Assembly: GCA_021793515.1 (NCBI GenBank)
Contig: JAJYSP010000001.1
Location: 10,533 to 74,532, forward strand
Length of the DNA: 64,000 nt
Source of the DNA: Actinomycetes bacterium
Lineage (GTDB): Bacteria > Actinomycetota > Acidimicrobiia > Acidimicrobiales > RAAP-2
Direction of reading: 5' to 3'
This document shows, piece by piece, positions 35,298 to 42,802 of this stretch (the first letter of the stretch is position 1; the number at the start of each line of letters is the position of its first letter). The notes under the pieces were generated by a model. That model saw nothing but the letters and a program-made list of their open reading frames with translations, ran no database searches and was not told the origin of the DNA. The position numbers and the translations under genes are program-made.

Positions 35298-36061
35298 GCG
35301 ATCTGCCGCTGCTTGAGGACGACCTCGACGAACCGGGTGTGCTCGAGGCCGCCATGCTGCACCGGCGTCCGCGGGTCCACCCCGCCGTCGTGCTCTGCTT
35401 CTTCAACGACCTGCTCACCCGGCTCGCCGCCGAGGGCGTCCTCACCCCGCTCTACTCGCTGCGCAGTGAGATCGGCACCAACCCCGTCTACGAGTTCAAT
35501 ACCCCGAGCGGCCCGGTCGCGGTCGTGCACCCCGGCATGGGCGGCCCCCTCGCCGCCGCCATCGTCGAGGAACTCGCAGCGCTCGGGATGACTTCAGTGG
35601 TCGCCTGCGGCGGTGCCGGCGCACTCGTCGCGGAACTCGATCGTGGCGCGATCATGGTCGTCGACTCCGCCCTGCGCGACGAGGGAACGAGTTTCCACTA
35701 CGCGCCTCCGTCGCGGGTCATCGACGCCGACCCGGACGGCGTCGAGGCGCTCGTGGGGGTGCTCAGCGCCAACGAAGTCGCCCACCGCGTGGGTCGAACC
35801 TGGACGACCGACGCGATCTTCCGCGAGGCGCGTAGCCGTGTCGATCGCCGCGTCGCCGAGGGCTGTTCGATGGTCGACATGGAGTCCGCCGCGTTCATCG
35901 CGGTTGCGCGCTACCGCCGGGTGCGGTTCGCCCAACTGCTCTACGCCGGGGACTCACTCGTGGGCGAATGGGACCATCGGTCGTGGCTGCGCGCCGGTGA
36001 GGTCCGCGAGCAGCTCTTCTACCTCGCCGCCGAAGGCGCTCGCCGCCTCCTCGAGGCTTGA
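35294..36061 (+). CDS. Nucleoside phosphorylase (PNP_UDP_1 family)
   Basis: GMGGPLAA, GGAGAL, RDEGTSFHY, TWTTDAIFRE, VDMESAA. Confidence 0.88.
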   Translation: MSDLPLLEDDLDEPGVLEAAMLHRRPRVHPAVVLCFFNDLLTRLAAEGVLTPLYSLRSEIGTNPVYEFNTPSGPVAVVHPGMGGPLAAAIVEELAALGMTSVVACGGAGALVAELDRGAIMVVDSALRDEGTSFHYAPPSRVIDADPDGVEALVGVLSANEVAHRVGRTWTTDAIFREARSRVDRRVAEGCSMVDMESAAFIAVARYRRVRFAQLLYAGDSLVGEWDHRSWLRAGEVREQLFYLAAEGARRLLEA

Positions 36062-36260
36062 CTCACCACTTCAGTCCATCGGGTCCGGGGTCCCACCCCC
36101 CCAGGGTCCCGCGCGACCCACGACCGCGCACGTATCGACTCGATGCGTCAGCGATCGAAGCCGCGTCATGAATAACCCACGCTCGCCCCATGCCGGTGAC
36201 GTGCCCGATGGCCCGCCCATACGCCATGCCCACCCGTGACGCCTCGTCGCTACGGGTGGA

Positions 36261-37277
36261 TCACGCGCGACAGAACGAGAGTCCCGTCGCGATGATGTCC
36301 CCGGCGCTGTCCTGGCGTAGCTCGGGGAGCGTCTGCAGGGACTCAAGACCAGCCACGACCGCCTCCTTGGGCACGCCACGAGCCCGGAGGAGTTCGATCA
36401 ACCACGTGAGAAACTCAGTGAAGACCGCGTCGTCATTGACGTAGAGCGTCGCGGCGGCGAAGCGGACCATGTAGGCCAAGTCCTCCTCGGTCCGTTGTCG
36501 TTGGTGCGATGAGTAGCTGGCCATCGCCGGGAATCGCCTCGTCAGTTCTGATAGCGCCCGCGGGGCCAACTCGCCTGCTCGAGCGTCCAGTTCACGGGCG
36601 TGGTCATCGGGCACGAATCGTGCACGCGGGTCCGGTGGTGCCGTCTCCCACGCTTTGAGCAGCGAGAGGGCGCTCGCCACATCGCCGGCGTAGGCGTCGG
36701 CACCGATTCGTGTGGCCCACTCGGGGTGCCCCTCGAACGCGTGACCACCCGCCATGACGGGCACACCCAACTCGTGGGCGACGTCGGCCAGTTCGGTGAC
36801 GCCCGAAAAGAAGAGCGGCAGCGCACACGTGATCGCGATCGCGTTGGGCTGGTACGTGGCGAGGAATCGACCGACGTCGACCGCCGGTGTCGATGCCCCC
36901 AAGAAAGCGGTCGCGACGCCCTCAGCCTGCAGTTGCTCGGCGATCATGTGTCCGGCGATGGAGTGCCAGTTACCCGGAGCGCAGGCGACGACGACCGAGC
37001 CGGTGTATCGGGGCGTCGGTGGCGCCGAGGCGAGCGCGTACAGGGCCGACTCCGTGACGCCCGACGCGAGATGCTCGTCGGCGACGCTGAGCTCACCGCG
37101 CTGCCACCGGTCACCGACTTCGCGTTGGGCCGGGGCCATGACGTCACCGATGATGTCGACCTTCGAGACGCCGGTGTCGAGGAGCTGAATCGTGAAATCG
37201 ATCGCGGCAACCGTCTCACCGGACACCGCCTGACCGACGAATCGAGTGACGTCGCCCCGGTGATCCGTCGACGTCAT
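36261..37277 (-). CDS. B12-binding protein: CarH-type four-helix bundle + Rossmann domain + extra C-terminal helical domain, no DNA-binding domain (photocobilin-like)
   Basis: W-x9-EH (WQRGELSVADEH) AdoCbl signature; base-off His in APGNWHSIAG; FLGASTP; about 100-aa helical tail EEDLAYMVRF..FTEFLTWLIELLRARGVP. Confidence 0.8.
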   Translation of the reverse strand: MTSTDHRGDVTRFVGQAVSGETVAAIDFTIQLLDTGVSKVDIIGDVMAPAQREVGDRWQRGELSVADEHLASGVTESALYALASAPPTPRYTGSVVVACAPGNWHSIAGHMIAEQLQAEGVATAFLGASTPAVDVGRFLATYQPNAIAITCALPLFFSGVTELADVAHELGVPVMAGGHAFEGHPEWATRIGADAYAGDVASALSLLKAWETAPPDPRARFVPDDHARELDARAGELAPRALSELTRRFPAMASYSSHQRQRTEEDLAYMVRFAAATLYVNDDAVFTEFLTWLIELLRARGVPKEAVVAGLESLQTLPELRQDSAGDIIATGLSFCRA

Positions 37278-38398
37278 CTCGCGACGATACGGTAGCGGCG
37301 AAAGTGGCGGGCGCGCGGGCGGAACTCACCGGTTGGAATCCGGCGATGCGACAGTCGATGATCGTCCGAGCGCATATACGCCTTGAACGCCTCGGGCGAC
37401 GTCCACCACGAGACCATGATGTAGGTCGTCGGATCGACGACGTCGGCCCATACCTCTAACTTGATGAATCCGGGCCACCGGTCTACAGCGCCCAGCCGGT
37501 TGGCAAACGCCCGCTCGAGGTCGAGTCGGCCTTCTTCTGGGACTTCGATCTGGCTCCACGCGACGAAGGCAGCGGCCAGCTGACCACTGTGCTCGGGCGC
37601 GCGCGAATCGACGGGGACGGTGTCGAGCGCCCAGTTCCAACGGTCGCGACCGTCCTTTTTGGCCGCGTACATCGCGCCGTCGGCCGCGGCGATCGCGGCG
37701 GCGGGATCGTTCGCGACGACGGCGATTCCCGCGCTGAAACTGACGTCGTAGGGGCGCGCGGCGATCCACGCGTCGCGCAGTCGGGTGAGGAACGCGTCGG
37801 GCTCCTTCGAGTCAGACAGCACGACGACGAACTCCTCGCCGCCGTAGCGACCGACGAAGTCTCGCCCGCGGATGCACTCGTGCAAGACTCGTCCGAGCGT
37901 TCGTAACGTCTCATCCCCCGCGGCGTGGCCGTAGGTGTCGTTCACGCGTTTGAAGTGGTCGAGATCGATCATGATGACCGTGTCACCATCGCGTAGCCGG
38001 CCGAGGGCTCGCGCGACCATGCGACGATTGGCCAATCGGGTGAGGCCGTCGGTCGTCGCTTCGACGCTGAAGCGGTGCACCTCGGAGTGGACCTCGATGG
38101 CGCGTCGTGCGTCGACGACGAATGACGGGAGGAAGCGTTCGAGTAGCGACGCGGCGACGCTGCCTCGGGGGGCGCGCGGCAGCAGCGGACTGCCCACGCC
38201 GAAGGACACATCAACGGGCAGCGAATCCCCCTCGACGTCGTCGACCGGCGCCACGTCCCCGCCGAGCGCGCGGACGAGGCTCGCGGCAACGTTTTGCGCG
38301 TCCTTCGCCGAGGAGACGTACAACAACGCGCGGGTCGCCTCTAACACCGCGATTGGAATCTCAGCCCGGTCGACGCCAGCGAACGTCTCATCGTTCAT
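37274..38398 (-). CDS. Diguanylate cyclase (GGEEF) fused to a C-terminal ABM/IsdG-like domain
   Basis: DGLTRLANRR, MIDLDHFKRVNDTYGHAAGD, I-site RGRD, RYGGEEF, ADGAMYAAK; C-terminal RLGAVDRWPGFIKLEVW..MVSWWTSPEAFKAYMRSDDHRLSH. Confidence 0.9.
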   Translation of the reverse strand: MNDETFAGVDRAEIPIAVLEATRALLYVSSAKDAQNVAASLVRALGGDVAPVDDVEGDSLPVDVSFGVGSPLLPRAPRGSVAASLLERFLPSFVVDARRAIEVHSEVHRFSVEATTDGLTRLANRRMVARALGRLRDGDTVIMIDLDHFKRVNDTYGHAAGDETLRTLGRVLHECIRGRDFVGRYGGEEFVVVLSDSKEPDAFLTRLRDAWIAARPYDVSFSAGIAVVANDPAAAIAAADGAMYAAKKDGRDRWNWALDTVPVDSRAPEHSGQLAAAFVAWSQIEVPEEGRLDLERAFANRLGAVDRWPGFIKLEVWADVVDPTTYIMVSWWTSPEAFKAYMRSDDHRLSHRRIPTGEFRPRARHFRRYRIVAR

Positions 38399-38562
38399 AG
38401 TCGACCCCGAACCGTACGTTCACCTCCAGCAGTGAAACAGTTTCCACGCCTAAGGAATCATAGTGAACGCCCGTTTCAGGGCACCTGCGGCCCCAGTCGC
38501 GTTCGCGACCGCTACCCGCGAGCGCCCGTCACTTCGCCGGTTCTCCAGTCGGGCGTTGACGT

Positions 38563-40866
38563 CTAGGGCAGCAGTTGGCCCGAACGAGCGAGTCGCACAC
38601 AGTGCGCGGCGACGTCGGCGTCGTACAAGGAGCCCGCACCCGACTCGATCTCCGCGATCGCCACCTCTGGGCCCAGACTCGCGCGATAGGGGCGGTGTGA
38701 CGACATTGCCTCCATAACGTCGGCGACCGCGACGATGCGCGCTTCGAGGAGGATCTCGGACCCCTTCAGCCCCTGGGGGTAGCCGCTGCCGTCGATCCGT
38801 TCGTGGTGCTGCAGAGCCACTTCGGCGACGGGCCAGGGGAAGGGAATGTCGCACAAGATGTCGTACCCCGATTGCGGGTGCAGTTGGATCAGGCGCCGCT
38901 CCATGTCGCTCAGTCGGCCCGGACGGGTCAGGATCTCCGCGGGAATGGAGATCTTGCCGATGTCGTGGAGTTGTCCGGCCACGCGCAGACCTTCGATCTG
39001 GTCGGCGTCGAGGTCCATCGCGAGCCCGATTCGGGCCGCGATTTCGGCGACGCGGCTCTGGTGTCCCGCCGTGTAGGGATCGCGCTGCTCACTGATCGAC
39101 GTCGCCATGGAGACGGTGGCGTGCAGGAGTGAACTGATCTCACGGAAGTGGGTCGCTTCGAGGATGTCACGCTCGACGATGGCGGTGACGTCGTCGATGA
39201 TGCCAAGTTGCGCCTGACTCCCGTGCTCGGCGATCGGGATTGACAATATCCACAGGTGCGAGACGGCACCGTCTTGCCGAGCCACGGTCACGACCTTCTC
39301 GTACTCGGACTCGATGAAGTACGACGCGTCTGCACCGAGCTGTTGGTCACTGGAGACCGGAATGGTGTCTTCGCGTGCGCCGATCATCGAGGCAACGGAG
39401 TCGAAGCCCAGCATCGAGGCCGCACGGGCGTTACCCAACTCGAACCGCCCGTTGCGAGCGAGGTAGATGCCCACCACCGACTGCTCGACGACGCCGCGGA
39501 ATCGTTCCTCAGACCTCGCCAGTGCGAGCTCGGAGCGCTGGTGGAGTCGTCGGTCCTCGAAGAGGTCCAGTGCGAAACTCAAGTCCTTGACCATCTCATC
39601 GAACAGTGGCCGCAAGGACTCATTGAAGAAGTTCTCCTCGGACGAATACAGCGAGAGGGTCGCTACAACGCCACCCCGACGGCTGATCGGTAGCGCCGCG
39701 ACCACACGCCACCCGTGTGCGGCACCCACTCGACTGAGTTCGTCGTCGTCGTCACCCGCGAGATTACGGATAACGATCTCACCGCTGGTCGCCGCCTCCG
39801 ACGCCGGCCAGGCCGAGAGGTTTGCCTCGGACTGGATCGAACGTCGCTCAGCGAGGAACTCGACCGCGTCGGCGCCGGCGCTCGCGACGGGACGCGCGGG
39901 TCGCTCCGGGTGGTCAAAGACGCCGACCCAGGCCATCTGCGCCGTGCCTACTCGCACCGTCGCTTCGACGATGCGTTCGAACAGGTCCATTTCGTCGTTC
40001 GCGTATATGACGGCCTGATTGCATTCACTGAGCGCTGCGTAGAGCATGCGGAGCCGGTGATTCGCAAGCTCAGCCTCCTTCCGTCGAGTGACGACCGTGT
40101 CGATGCCGCGCACGACGGTGCCCCGACCCGCGGCGTCGCGCCTCATCACCCTTCCGTGGACCCAGAGCCAGTGAACGGTCGAATCGGGCCAGACGACCCG
40201 GAAGTCGTAGTCGTACTCGTCGGGGCCACTCGGTGCGAGCGACCGTTCGATCACCGCCGCCGCGAACACCCGGTCATCGGGGTGCGTCGCTTCGAGAAAG
40301 GTCTCGAGCCGCCAGGGGTTTTGCCAGGTGAGACCGTAGAGCGCGTCGTGGTTCCTCGATCGCCGCATCAGGTTGCGCTCGGCGTCGTACTCCCACACGG
40401 CGACTTCACCCGACGCGGTGGCGAGATCGAAGAGCGCTCGTTGGGAACGAAGTCGGTCATCGCGCAAACCAACGAGCAACGCAGTCAGGACGACGACGAG
40501 CAGAATCGTCCATTCGGCTTCAACTTCGTGACTGGTGTGTACCTCGAAGATTTCGACCGACAACAACAGCACGGAACCACCCAATGACGTCGCCAGTGAC
40601 CCCACGGAGCCGAACTCGGTGCTCGCCAGCACGGCTGGCACGACCAGCACCGCGTCGACGAAGAATCCCGAGAACGGGATGGTGCCACGGTTGTTCAGGT
40701 AATCGAAGAGGTAGTGCAGAACGACGAGCGCGGCGACCAGCCACTGGATCCGCCAGAATCGTCGACTGGCGAACGTGTCACGCGCGCTCTGGGCCAGCCC
40801 TTCGAACGAGTGGGTGACCCGTGGCACCGACTCGAGCTGGTCCTCGAATGTGGACCTCGTTCTCAC
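38563..40866 (-). CDS. Membrane-PAS-GAF-PAS-HD-GYP c-di-GMP phosphodiesterase
   Basis: RDPYTAGHQSRVA, LHDIGK, HHERIDGSGYP, IVAVADVMEAM..RPYR; PAS_3 (FRVVWPDSTVHW), GAF (LYAALSECNQAV), N-terminal TM helices. Confidence 0.93.
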   Translation of the reverse strand: MRTRSTFEDQLESVPRVTHSFEGLAQSARDTFASRRFWRIQWLVAALVVLHYLFDYLNNRGTIPFSGFFVDAVLVVPAVLASTEFGSVGSLATSLGGSVLLLSVEIFEVHTSHEVEAEWTILLVVVLTALLVGLRDDRLRSQRALFDLATASGEVAVWEYDAERNLMRRSRNHDALYGLTWQNPWRLETFLEATHPDDRVFAAAVIERSLAPSGPDEYDYDFRVVWPDSTVHWLWVHGRVMRRDAAGRGTVVRGIDTVVTRRKEAELANHRLRMLYAALSECNQAVIYANDEMDLFERIVEATVRVGTAQMAWVGVFDHPERPARPVASAGADAVEFLAERRSIQSEANLSAWPASEAATSGEIVIRNLAGDDDDELSRVGAAHGWRVVAALPISRRGGVVATLSLYSSEENFFNESLRPLFDEMVKDLSFALDLFEDRRLHQRSELALARSEERFRGVVEQSVVGIYLARNGRFELGNARAASMLGFDSVASMIGAREDTIPVSSDQQLGADASYFIESEYEKVVTVARQDGAVSHLWILSIPIAEHGSQAQLGIIDDVTAIVERDILEATHFREISSLLHATVSMATSISEQRDPYTAGHQSRVAEIAARIGLAMDLDADQIEGLRVAGQLHDIGKISIPAEILTRPGRLSDMERRLIQLHPQSGYDILCDIPFPWPVAEVALQHHERIDGSGYPQGLKGSEILLEARIVAVADVMEAMSSHRPYRASLGPEVAIAEIESGAGSLYDADVAAHCVRLARSGQLLP

Positions 40867-41203
40867 GACGATCGTCTCCCTACTGTCGCGTGCGCCGCCC
40901 CACGCGACCCGCCCTCACGAACTGCAATCCCCACACCATAGGCAAACGATCACCCTCTGGCGTGGCGGCGCCAGCCCACTTCAAACGAGTCCTCGTCGAC
41001 GTGGTCGCGTCGCGCCGTCGTCGCCGGCACGTCACAGGCGGTGCCCGCGGCGGTCTCGGCGGCCCTGTTCGAATCCGTCGCCGAGCCCCTGGACAGCATC
41101 ACCCATCGAGGTGATCGGACGTCCTCGCGGACCGGTGGTGGATCGTGCCGGTCACCCCTCGATTCGTCACCACGTGGTGGATCCTCACCAGTAGCGTCGA
41201 GAC

Positions 41204-42802
41204 GTGGACCCGTCGACGCCAATCAACCGACGATCGTTGTTGCGCCGCGGACTCCAGGTGGGCGGCGTGGTGGCTGGGGCGGCCCTGGTCGGCCTCGCGA
41301 TCGAGGAGAACCGACCGCGCACCGTCACGACCACCACGTCGACGACCTCGACGTCGACGACGCTGGGCCCCGCCACGGCGTCGTCTTGGGCGACGCTCGC
41401 GGCGTCACTGACGGGCTCCCTGGTCCTTCCCACGGACAGCGCCTACGCAGCCGACACGCTGCTCTACAACGAGAAATTCGTGGACTTGCACCCCCAGGGC
41501 ATCGCCTACTGTGCGAACGCCGATGACGTCGCGCGCTGCGTCGACTTCGCGACCACGCACGAGATGGCACTCGCCGCCCGGTCGGGTGGTCACAGTTACG
41601 GCGGCTACTCGAGTTGTCCGGGGCTCGTGATCGACGTCAGTCGGCTCTCGTCGATCGTGGTCGACAGGCGGACAAACACCGCGACCGTCGGGGCCGGTGC
41701 ACGGCTCATCGACGTCTACAACACCGTCGCGAGCCACGGCCTGCTCCTACCGAGCGGCTCGTGTCCGACCGTCGGGATCGCCGGGATCACACTCGGCGGC
41801 GGCATCGGCGTCCTCGGGCGACGGTATGGACTCACCTCGGACAATCTGCAGTCCCTCGAACTCGTGACCAGTGACGCCCACCAGGTGACAGCGAGCGCCG
41901 AGGACCACGCCGACCTCCTGTGGGCCTCACGCGGCGGGGGCGGCGGCAACTACGGCATCGCGACGTCCCTCACGTTCACGCTGCACCCGGTTCCCGAGCT
42001 GACGTTGTTCACGCTGCAGTACCCGTGGCCGGCCGCGGCCGCCATGCTCGAAGCGTGGCAACACTGGACGGCCACGGCGCCCGACGAACTCTGGTCGAAC
42101 TGCCAGCTCCTCACCCAGGGCTCCTACGGCTACCTCGCCCAGACGAGTGGCGTGTTCTGCGGGTCGCCGACGGCGCTCGCGGGACTGCTCGCCGCGCTCG
42201 AACAAAGCATCGGCTCGGCGCCGACCTACCGGTTCATCGGTCCAAAGGCGTACATCGACGCGATGGCCATCGAGGCCGGCTGCGCGGGGCTCACCATCGC
42301 CGCCTGCCACCTGGCCACCGAGAGCCCCGGCGGGACGCTCTCGCGCTTGGCGTACTCGGCGAAGTCCAGCTACGTCGACCAGCCCATGGACAGCGCACAG
42401 GTCACCGCCATCGTCGACGCCGTCGAACACTTGCACACGAGCGCGCCGACCGTCGGTGGCGGCCTCGCCTTTGACGCCTACGGGGGTGTGATCAACCGCG
42501 TCGCCCCGGGCGCGACCGCCTTCGTGCACCGCGACAAGCTCGCTTGCATCCAGGCGACGTACTCGTGGTCGAGCGCCACGCCGGCCAGCGAGATCAACGC
42601 GGGTGCGCAGTGGTTGACCTGGCTCGGCGCGAACGTCTTTGACCCACGCACCGGCGCCTACCAGAACTACATCGACCCCACGCTCGCCAACTGGGAAGCC
42701 GCGTACTACGGCGCCAATCTCGGGCGCCTCGAGCTCGTGAAGAAGGCCTACGACCCCGAGAACCGCTTCGCCTTCACCCAGTCCATCCCACCGGCGCCGT
42801 AG
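41204..42802 (+). CDS. Tat-exported FAD-linked oxidase (BBE/VAO family), probably bicovalent
   Basis: NRRSLL twin-arginine signal, Thr-rich linker, RSGGHSY, PSGSCPTVGIAG, RGGGGGNYGI, GAYQNYID BBE tail. Confidence 0.9.
   Translation: MDPSTPINRRSLLRRGLQVGGVVAGAALVGLAIEENRPRTVTTTTSTTSTSTTLGPATASSWATLAASLTGSLVLPTDSAYAADTLLYNEKFVDLHPQGIAYCANADDVARCVDFATTHEMALAARSGGHSYGGYSSCPGLVIDVSRLSSIVVDRRTNTATVGAGARLIDVYNTVASHGLLLPSGSCPTVGIAGITLGGGIGVLGRRYGLTSDNLQSLELVTSDAHQVTASAEDHADLLWASRGGGGGNYGIATSLTFTLHPVPELTLFTLQYPWPAAAAMLEAWQHWTATAPDELWSNCQLLTQGSYGYLAQTSGVFCGSPTALAGLLAALEQSIGSAPTYRFIGPKAYIDAMAIEAGCAGLTIAACHLATESPGGTLSRLAYSAKSSYVDQPMDSAQVTAIVDAVEHLHTSAPTVGGGLAFDAYGGVINRVAPGATAFVHRDKLACIQATYSWSSATPASEINAGAQWLTWLGANVFDPRTGAYQNYIDPTLANWEAAYYGANLGRLELVKKAYDPENRFAFTQSIPPAP

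Follow-up and report, generated by a model that had tools for sequence, protein, structure and literature searches.

Photocobilins, light sensors that join a B12 module to a bilin-pocket globin, were characterised in 2024 with biliverdin added in vitro, and their described traits are the W-x9-EH and E/DxH motifs, a His lower ligand and a C-terminal five-helix globin (PMC10979010). The closest described system is AbDPcob, a photocobilin-diguanylate cyclase fusion from an Acidimicrobiaceae bacterium (Zhang et al. 2024, PMC10979010), whose photoreceptor part (AbPcob) is PDB 8J2Y; adenosylcobalamin (AdoCbl) inhibits this fusion in the dark, and light activates the cyclase >10-fold (PMC10979010). 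SasPcob of Saccharothrix syringae (PDB 8J2W/8J2X) is a stand-alone B12 plus photoglobin protein in which Asp270 and Trp296 hold biliverdin, whereas in AbPcob this Asp is replaced by His and biliverdin binding is weak (PMC10979010). A survey of photoglobin operons (Schneider et al. 2022, PMC8717448) lists GGDEF, HD-GYP and 'ABM monooxygenase' genes among the operon members, the ABM genes in a general mention, and also found canonical heme oxygenase genes and heme oxygenase-photoglobin fusions. Here we describe a two-gene locus in a 64,000-nucleotide stretch of an Actinomycetes bacterium genome of the order Acidimicrobiales (contig JAJYSP010000001.1, positions 10,533 to 74,532; hereafter the window), in which a diguanylate cyclase with a C-terminal ABM domain (gene 1) is followed by a stand-alone photocobilin (gene 2). 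Our leading, still tentative, reading is that the two genes form a split, three-module photocobilin-regulated diguanylate cyclase whose ABM domain is dedicated to the photocobilin and would supply or hand over its bilin.

Both genes lie on the minus strand, as do all genes and domains of the window for which coordinates are given below. Gene 1 (37274..38398) encodes a 374-aa protein which, according to its open reading frame (ORF), Pfam matches and an AlphaFold2 (AF2) model, consists of an N-terminal domain, a stalk, a GGDEF domain, a linker and the ABM domain. Gene 2 (36261..37277) encodes the photocobilin, a protein of 338 aa. The 3' end of gene 1 reads GCG AGA TGA, and the ATG of gene 2 overlaps that TGA, so that two ORFs in different frames are joined by an ATGA stop/start overlap (37274..37277). 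Judged from the sequence, this overlap translationally couples the end of the ABM domain to the start of the photocobilin. The initial annotation of this DNA had reported the same overlap, together with an intact GGEEF cyclase bearing an I-site and a C-terminal ABM domain, and each of these features was recovered in our analysis.

Pfam recognised B12-binding_2 (PF02607; residues 17-82, E=1.6e-13) and B12-binding (PF02310; residues 94-204, E=4.5e-15) in the gene 2 protein; with their motifs, these define a B12 module made of a four-helix bundle and a Rossmann domain (36666..37229). The photoglobin, or bilin-pocket, domain (approximately residues 225-320; 36318..36605) was delimited by alignment to 8J2W and 8J2Y, and Pfam added a weak Phycobilisome (globin) match to residues 227-316 (E=0.0024). 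Pfam detected no DNA-binding domain. The protein matched 8J2Y over residues 10-316, covering all three domains (E=5.9e-73), then 8J2W/8J2X (E=1.9e-46), with CarH further off (~1e-14). The CarH-type motif W58-x9-E68-H69 was intact, as in all tabulated relatives, axial His105 was present, and Asp266 and Trp292 aligned with Asp270 and Trp296 of SasPcob after correction of the chain numbering. Window photocobilin and SasPcob thus share the stand-alone B12-photoglobin layout, W-x9-EH, the axial His and the bilin Asp and Trp; they differ in that they are only ~34-40% identical and that the proposed partners of SasPcob are of the STAS/SpoIIE type, with no cyclase. From these matches and motifs we assign gene 2 as a genuine photocobilin, predicted by homology to bind AdoCbl (green light) and a linear tetrapyrrole in the globin pocket (red light). 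This agrees with the initial annotation, which had described a CarH-type B12 protein with an extra helical domain and no DNA-binding domain and had proposed a photocobilin-type photoreceptor. Genes for a PduO-type adenosyltransferase and for several B12 enzymes are present in the genome, and AdoCbl is therefore available. We had expected Asp at the bilin position in ABM-linked photocobilins and His in cyclase fusions, a distinction that was rejected because nearly all fusions have Asp and only one (P0100) has His.

Comparison with the fused proteins supports regulation of the cyclase by this photocobilin. Domain BLAST showed that the ~600-aa fusions consist of the N-terminal domain plus GGDEF followed by the photocobilin, cyclase first, and that their cyclase part is 53-57% identical to residues ~12-262 of the window protein. 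An Acidimicrobiaceae photocobilin fused to a cyclase had been mentioned in the initial annotation; this is AbDPcob, and the window cyclase is indeed closely related to the cyclase half of such fusions. Aligned in this way, the window operon is colinear with the fusions, with the ABM domain inserted at the junction and the gene split right after it. The photocobilins of AbDPcob and of the window are homologous over their full length, and fusion-type relatives share the unit of N-terminal domain plus GGDEF in the same order. However, AbDPcob is one polypeptide, whereas the window has two translationally coupled genes with an IsdG-like ABM on the cyclase C-terminus; the window photocobilin also has, at the site of SasPcob Asp270, an Asp that is His in AbPcob, and an Asn in the E/DxH motif. 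Given colinearity with a light-activated fusion, and homology, control in trans is the most economical reading, and light control of the window cyclase by the photocobilin appears well supported by these sequence comparisons. By analogy, the SiaD-SiaC system of Pseudomonas aeruginosa (PDB 7E6G) offers a precedent for activation of a cyclase in trans: it also places a stalk-helix GGDEF protein under a separately encoded partner. SiaD is a structural neighbour of the window model (TMq 0.43), and in NCBIfam its model is matched by the GGDEF part of gene 1. Unlike the window partner, SiaC is no photoreceptor, and the regulatory domains are non-homologous.

The GGDEF domain (residues 114-253; 37640..38059) was identified by Pfam (E=1.6e-33), by invariant catalytic columns and by Foldseek. 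GGEEF occupies residues 186-190 and the I-site RGRD (RxxD) residues 177-180, at the canonical spacing of five residues, while D145, N153, D162, K247 and R251 fall in conserved columns; the domain has the active-site residues of GG(D/E)EF enzymes and is predicted by its motifs to be an active diguanylate cyclase. The AF2 model of the gene 1 protein had a mean pLDDT (predicted local distance difference test score) of 85.8. With the full model, GGDEF structures were the only Foldseek matches; they included PadC, PleD, WspR and SiaD with E down to 2e-13, of which PadC, WspR and SiaD are stalk-helix cyclases. Searches with protein 1 recovered >70 clusters (90% identity) that share the GGDEF+ABM architecture; they belong to Acidimicrobiales, to other Actinomycetota and to Nitriliruptoraceae. 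The next most similar proteins were ~285-aa cyclases without ABM and ~600-aa proteins combining GGDEF with both B12 domains.

Ahead of the cyclase lies a small N-terminal domain (residues 10-115; 38054..38371) that was modelled by AF2 as a pair of helices, a small sheet and, running into GGDEF, a long stalk helix (81-115), with a pLDDT of 91.4. This domain had no Pfam match and no PDB sequence match, and Foldseek gave no convincing neighbour, the top one being the KdpD GAF domain (E=0.09, TM 0.49). It is conserved in the cyclase-photocobilin fusions and in the ABM-less 285-aa cyclases, and all cassette forms contain it, even those without GGDEF or without ABM (L157, L158). Even where the GGDEF domain is missing (L112, L116, L132, L157, L158), the N-terminal domain adjoins the photocobilin gene. 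We infer that it receives or docks the photocobilin, whose action on the stalk would in turn alter the geometry of the cyclase dimer. In the mechanism that we propose, the AdoCbl-bound photocobilin would keep the cyclase at low activity in the dark, and in the light a shift in its quaternary state would release synthesis of cyclic di-GMP (c-di-GMP). The signal would pass from photocobilin to cyclase by non-covalent contact within a complex, not through a peptide link, and would be received at the N-terminal domain ahead of the stalk helix. In the preferred form of this mechanism the ABM domain would bind heme and either make a bilin-type chromophore or hand one over to the photoglobin pocket, the host having no canonical heme oxygenase.

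The association of ABM with a photocobilin gene extends far beyond the window. Seven distant homologues, 47-57% identical to protein 1, were located on their contigs; six were followed directly by a 330-351-aa B12-binding_2/B12-binding gene with a 4-nt overlap, and the flanking genes differed among all seven. A metagenome scan with an ABM-only profile yielded 54 further loci; a contig-scan profile built from the full cyclase-ABM alignment was dropped, as its generic GGDEF signal returned irrelevant cyclases (L001-L080). All ABM-bearing loci were grouped into 42 clusters at 90% ABM identity, 40 of them with enough flank to judge. The photocobilin was directly downstream of ABM in 32 of the 40, elsewhere in the locus in 4 and absent in 4, and the ABM-photocobilin junction was almost everywhere NTGA (ATGA, GTGA or TTGA). 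To the question posed in the initial annotation, whether the two genes are conserved neighbours, the answer is therefore yes, with a photocobilin next to six of the seven distant homologues and in 36 of the 40 ABM loci.

The arrangement of the partners varied among these loci. ABM was fused to the cyclase, as in the window, in one arrangement. Three-gene operons with separate diguanylate cyclase, ABM and photocobilin genes had GTGA/ATGA overlaps and Shine-Dalgarno sequences at both junctions. In L112, L116 and L132, ABM was fused to the N-terminal domain alone, without GGDEF. Just upstream of the cyclase-photocobilin fusions, a 113-aa ABM gene was present in 3 of 4 cases, its product 44-46% identical to the window ABM. 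In L086, ABM came after the photocobilin on the opposite strand, and in L110, L138, L139 and L159 the ABM-photocobilin pair had no cyclase nearby. Because ABM stands beside the photocobilin across all these arrangements, it tracks the photocobilin and not the cyclase. Among the cyclase-ABM proteins, a subgroup with a degenerate GGDQF motif (L094, L141, L142, L144; P0070, P0072, P0089) had no photocobilin downstream, and its ABM axial His was replaced by Gln or Cys; the GGDEF motif, the ABM His and the photocobilin appear to have been lost together.

Two irregular ABM sequences were seen among the related loci. In L151, a decayed ABM with an internal deletion (L151:5865-6062) lies in the 199-nt gap between a 287-aa cyclase and the photocobilin; the remnant keeps '...MISWWDSPE...HRRSH...FRRFGVVAR*' and the GTGA overlap, which indicates that ABM can be lost secondarily. 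In L120 (4019-4021), and also in L121 and L122, an in-frame TAA interrupts the ABM domain encoded by a cyclase-ABM gene ('AEFVA*SRLEIPEG'). Three metagenome assemblies of one study show it identically, and a natural split, pseudogenisation or recoding could each account for it.

The ABM domain itself (residues 276-374; 37277..37573) was placed in the IsdG/HmoB/MhuD clade by a PDB profile search, a residue table and NCBIfam. Pfam matched ABM at residues 283-351 (E=3.8e-12), and AF2 modelled a disordered linker (residues 260-273) between it and the GGDEF domain. A profile built from 23 family domains and searched against all PDB sequences gave as top matches TT1380 (4.6e-12), HmoB of B. subtilis (6.6e-12), MhuD (3e-8), IsdI (7e-7) and IsdG (1e-4), while polyketide-type ABMs such as SnoaB were matched only above 1e-3. 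The AF2 secondary structure of residues 278-370 agrees in topology with the description of the IsdG family (PMC6018153). IsdG has a triad of Asn7, Trp67 and His77, in which the heme is axially ligated by His and ruffled by Trp, and catalysis depends critically on Asn (PMC6018153); in the window ABM, Trp332 stands at the Trp67 position and His351 at that of axial His77. The Phe, Arg, Trp and His columns were almost invariant in the cassette ABMs, and Trp and His were kept in ~90% of the wider representatives. The closest solved relatives of the domain are thus IsdG/IsdI, MhuD, HmoB and HmuQ, with which it shares the ferredoxin-like ABM fold, the topology, and both the His that ligates heme and the Trp that ruffles it. 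The profile evidence assigns it to the heme-degrading clade, as the initial annotation had surmised, and it would work like an IsdG-fold, His-ligating tetrapyrrole pocket.

Several lines of evidence favour bilin supply by this domain. ABM is tightly coupled to a protein with a bilin pocket. No canonical heme oxygenase (PF01126) was found in the window genome (97.65% complete), and the other three ABM proteins of that genome had no NCBIfam heme oxygenase or HmuQ matches, none being IsdG-like. Photoglobin-heme oxygenase fusions exist (PMC8717448) and are functional analogues of the role proposed here, for which ABM would be a non-orthologous substitute. The GGDQF subgroup, which lost photocobilin, GGDEF motif and ABM His, points the same way. 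A protein that joins a B12-binding module directly to ABM (P0368) is also known from the searches. In addition, the bilin Asp of the photocobilin was replaced by Asn only where the ABM pocket was degenerate (25/0/3/2 over 30 non-redundant pairs; Fisher p=0.023, uncorrected for phylogeny); in a third photocobilin with Asn, the ABM N-terminus was out of frame. Across 15 genomes with members of the cassette family, a heme oxygenase was present in 0 of 5 with ABM and 2 of 10 without, a difference that is not significant, although its direction fits bilin supply. Taken together, this makes it plausible that ABM makes or supplies the bilin, although we put that specific claim on the doubtful side.

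Other observations weigh against it. Ser282 aligns with the catalytic Asn (IsdG Asn7, HmoB Asn70 and the corresponding Asn of TT1380), whose replacement in MhuD (Asn7Ala) lowers activity (PMC6018153). Ser occupied this position in 29 of the 35 top family representatives and in 89 of 113 further ones, Asn being rare, and the NCBIfam heme oxygenase and HmuQ models scored ~26 bits (E ~9e-6), below their cut-offs of 119-130. On both the Asn and the curated thresholds, the domain falls short of what its sequence would need to predict a bona fide IsdG-type heme oxygenase. The Ser-type ABM family comprises 127 clusters at 50% identity (E<=1e-10) that keep Ser, Phe, Arg, Trp and two His. Among 47 long relatives, 10 are PAS-HisKA-HATPase kinases headed by this ABM, in the usual position of a sensor domain, and it also occurs in ABM-PAS proteins, in an EAL-ABM protein (examples are among P0309, P0334, P0250 and P0368) and, in P0368, fused directly to a CarH-type B12-binding_2/B12-binding module, at the place that the globin takes in photocobilins. 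The ABM-PAS proteins gave no usable context in 400 genomes of the phylum. IsdG-family enzymes belong to iron-acquisition contexts, whereas ABMs of the window type belong to signalling contexts. Furthermore, cassettes without ABM (L084, L085, L087, L151, L156) keep the bilin Asp, and eight of the ten ABM-less host genomes have no heme oxygenase either, so ABM is no universal requirement.

Much of this would also suit the same light-regulated split cyclase with ABM as a non-enzymatic heme or tetrapyrrole sensor or a second chromophore site (heme, O2/NO/CO, redox), providing a second input. A catalytic Asn turned into a near-invariant Ser while axial His, Trp, Phe and Arg are kept, and an ABM that heads kinases, speak for such a role. 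As a complete account of the locus it seems to us rather unlikely, though a non-catalytic sensor or co-chromophore role for the domain is about as likely as bilin supply. Its difficulties are that ABM goes with the photocobilin gene and not with the output enzyme, as in the cyclase-free pairs; that the translational coupling is to the photocobilin; and that the heme-ruffling Trp is invariant, a residue of which a passive sensor is not obviously in need. A ligand-free structural adaptor, in which ABM dimerises the cyclase and/or docks the photocobilin in place of the covalent link, would draw on the dimeric alpha+beta barrels formed by IsdG-family ABMs (PMC6018153), on the position of ABM exactly at the junction where the ~600-aa proteins carry the photocobilin, and on the flexible tether in the AF2 model. 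A purely structural role is nevertheless unlikely, and we consider this explanation improbable: the pocket residues are conserved in >100 clusters, the only subgroup to lose the axial His is the one without photocobilin, and a free ABM gene directly precedes 3 of 4 fusions, although these have no need of an adaptor.

The photocobilin itself has one feature that may speak against light sensing. Residue 103 is Asn where the E/DxH motif has Asp or Glu (ACAPGNWHS, window 36963-36971), a position filled by Asp or Glu in 69 of 69 relatives from the fetched loci and fusions. Among >170 relatives compared, the variant was confined to the clade of the window (P0121-P0124), where it is fixed in four clusters at 86-98% identity, and relatives at 71% identity have Asp, which makes the variant a trait of the lineage and no assembly error. 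The B12 protein could accordingly be imagined as no photoreceptor here, reporting instead cobalamin availability or redox state to the cyclase. We regard this as very improbable, since the W-x9-EH signature and axial His are intact, the whole protein aligns with AbPcob and the genome makes AdoCbl. That the genes are neighbours by chance and unrelated in function is hardly credible, given a 4-nt overlap kept among unrelated flanks in proteins down to 32-47% identity and the existence of cyclase-photocobilin fusion proteins.

The cassette was found in none of 13 genomes of the same genus, and of 401 genomes sampled from the class only 2 encoded a full-length cyclase-ABM protein, a patchy distribution that marks the cassette as an accessory module. 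Along the window, G+C is ~0.61-0.63 at 1-32 kb, the flagellar region, and 0.65-0.68 at 32-44 kb. Two more small B12-binding-domain proteins are encoded in the genome (C27:76009-76341 and C26:68418-68684; open frames of 212 and 309 aa), one of them just past the end of the window. Upstream of gene 1, on the same strand and 164 nt away, lies the gene for a 767-aa PAS-GAF-PAS-HD-GYP protein with a hydrophobic N-terminus (38563..40866; Pfam HD_5 E=1.5e-40, GAF_2, PAS_3, PAS_8), from its domains a likely c-di-GMP phosphodiesterase, so that synthesis of c-di-GMP by the cyclase would be paired locally with its breakdown. In none of the related loci examined did an HD_5 gene immediately precede the cassette, the sole one seen being in L094, ~3 kb downstream on the opposite strand; the HD-GYP neighbour is local context only. 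A promoter and terminator scan of positions 35900-41300 detected nothing resembling a promoter, and its single terminator-like site fell within gene 1 but on the wrong strand. The cassette adjoins the HD-GYP gene and a flagellar cluster ~5 kb away, which suggests that light may control motility through c-di-GMP in this organism.

Earlier publications cover the photoreceptor family, its fusion to a light-activated cyclase and, in general terms, the link of photoglobin operons to GGDEF, HD-GYP and 'ABM monooxygenase' genes (PMC10979010, PMC8717448). The initial annotation had considered the arrangement undescribed, and this stood in part: the fused form and a general listing of ABM genes precede it, the listing coming with no analysis of this cassette. 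In the literature searched we found no description of the split cyclase-ABM and photocobilin cassette or its near-universal translational coupling, of the Ser-type IsdG-like clade as a constant photocobilin companion, including upstream of fusions, or of the conserved N-terminal domain. The text of Schneider et al. 2022 (PMC8717448) contains neither the cassette, nor its coupling, nor the Ser-type clade, and searches for MhuD N7S, IsdG-like sensor kinases and ABM-domain cyclases returned nothing relevant.

The locus bears on the cellular source of bilin and on how stand-alone photocobilins reach their outputs, and it flags two conserved partners: the IsdG-like module, with the photoreceptor alongside in ~90% of its loci, and the small N-terminal domain of the cyclase. 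One further possibility, speculative and on balance doubtful, is that the Ser-Trp-His ABM clade is an unrecognised IsdG-like lineage making a linear tetrapyrrole that is passed directly to the photoglobin pocket; by analogy with mycobilin and staphylobilin, this product might differ from biliverdin IX-alpha. If so, it would provide a self-sufficient light sensor in bacteria without heme oxygenase and would explain the poor biliverdin binding of the published fusion, which was tested without the neighbouring ABM protein. If ABM makes or delivers the chromophore, the parts list would be complete for photocobilin-cyclase pairs as broad-spectrum optogenetic tools, and a signalling role would be added to a family known mainly from iron acquisition.

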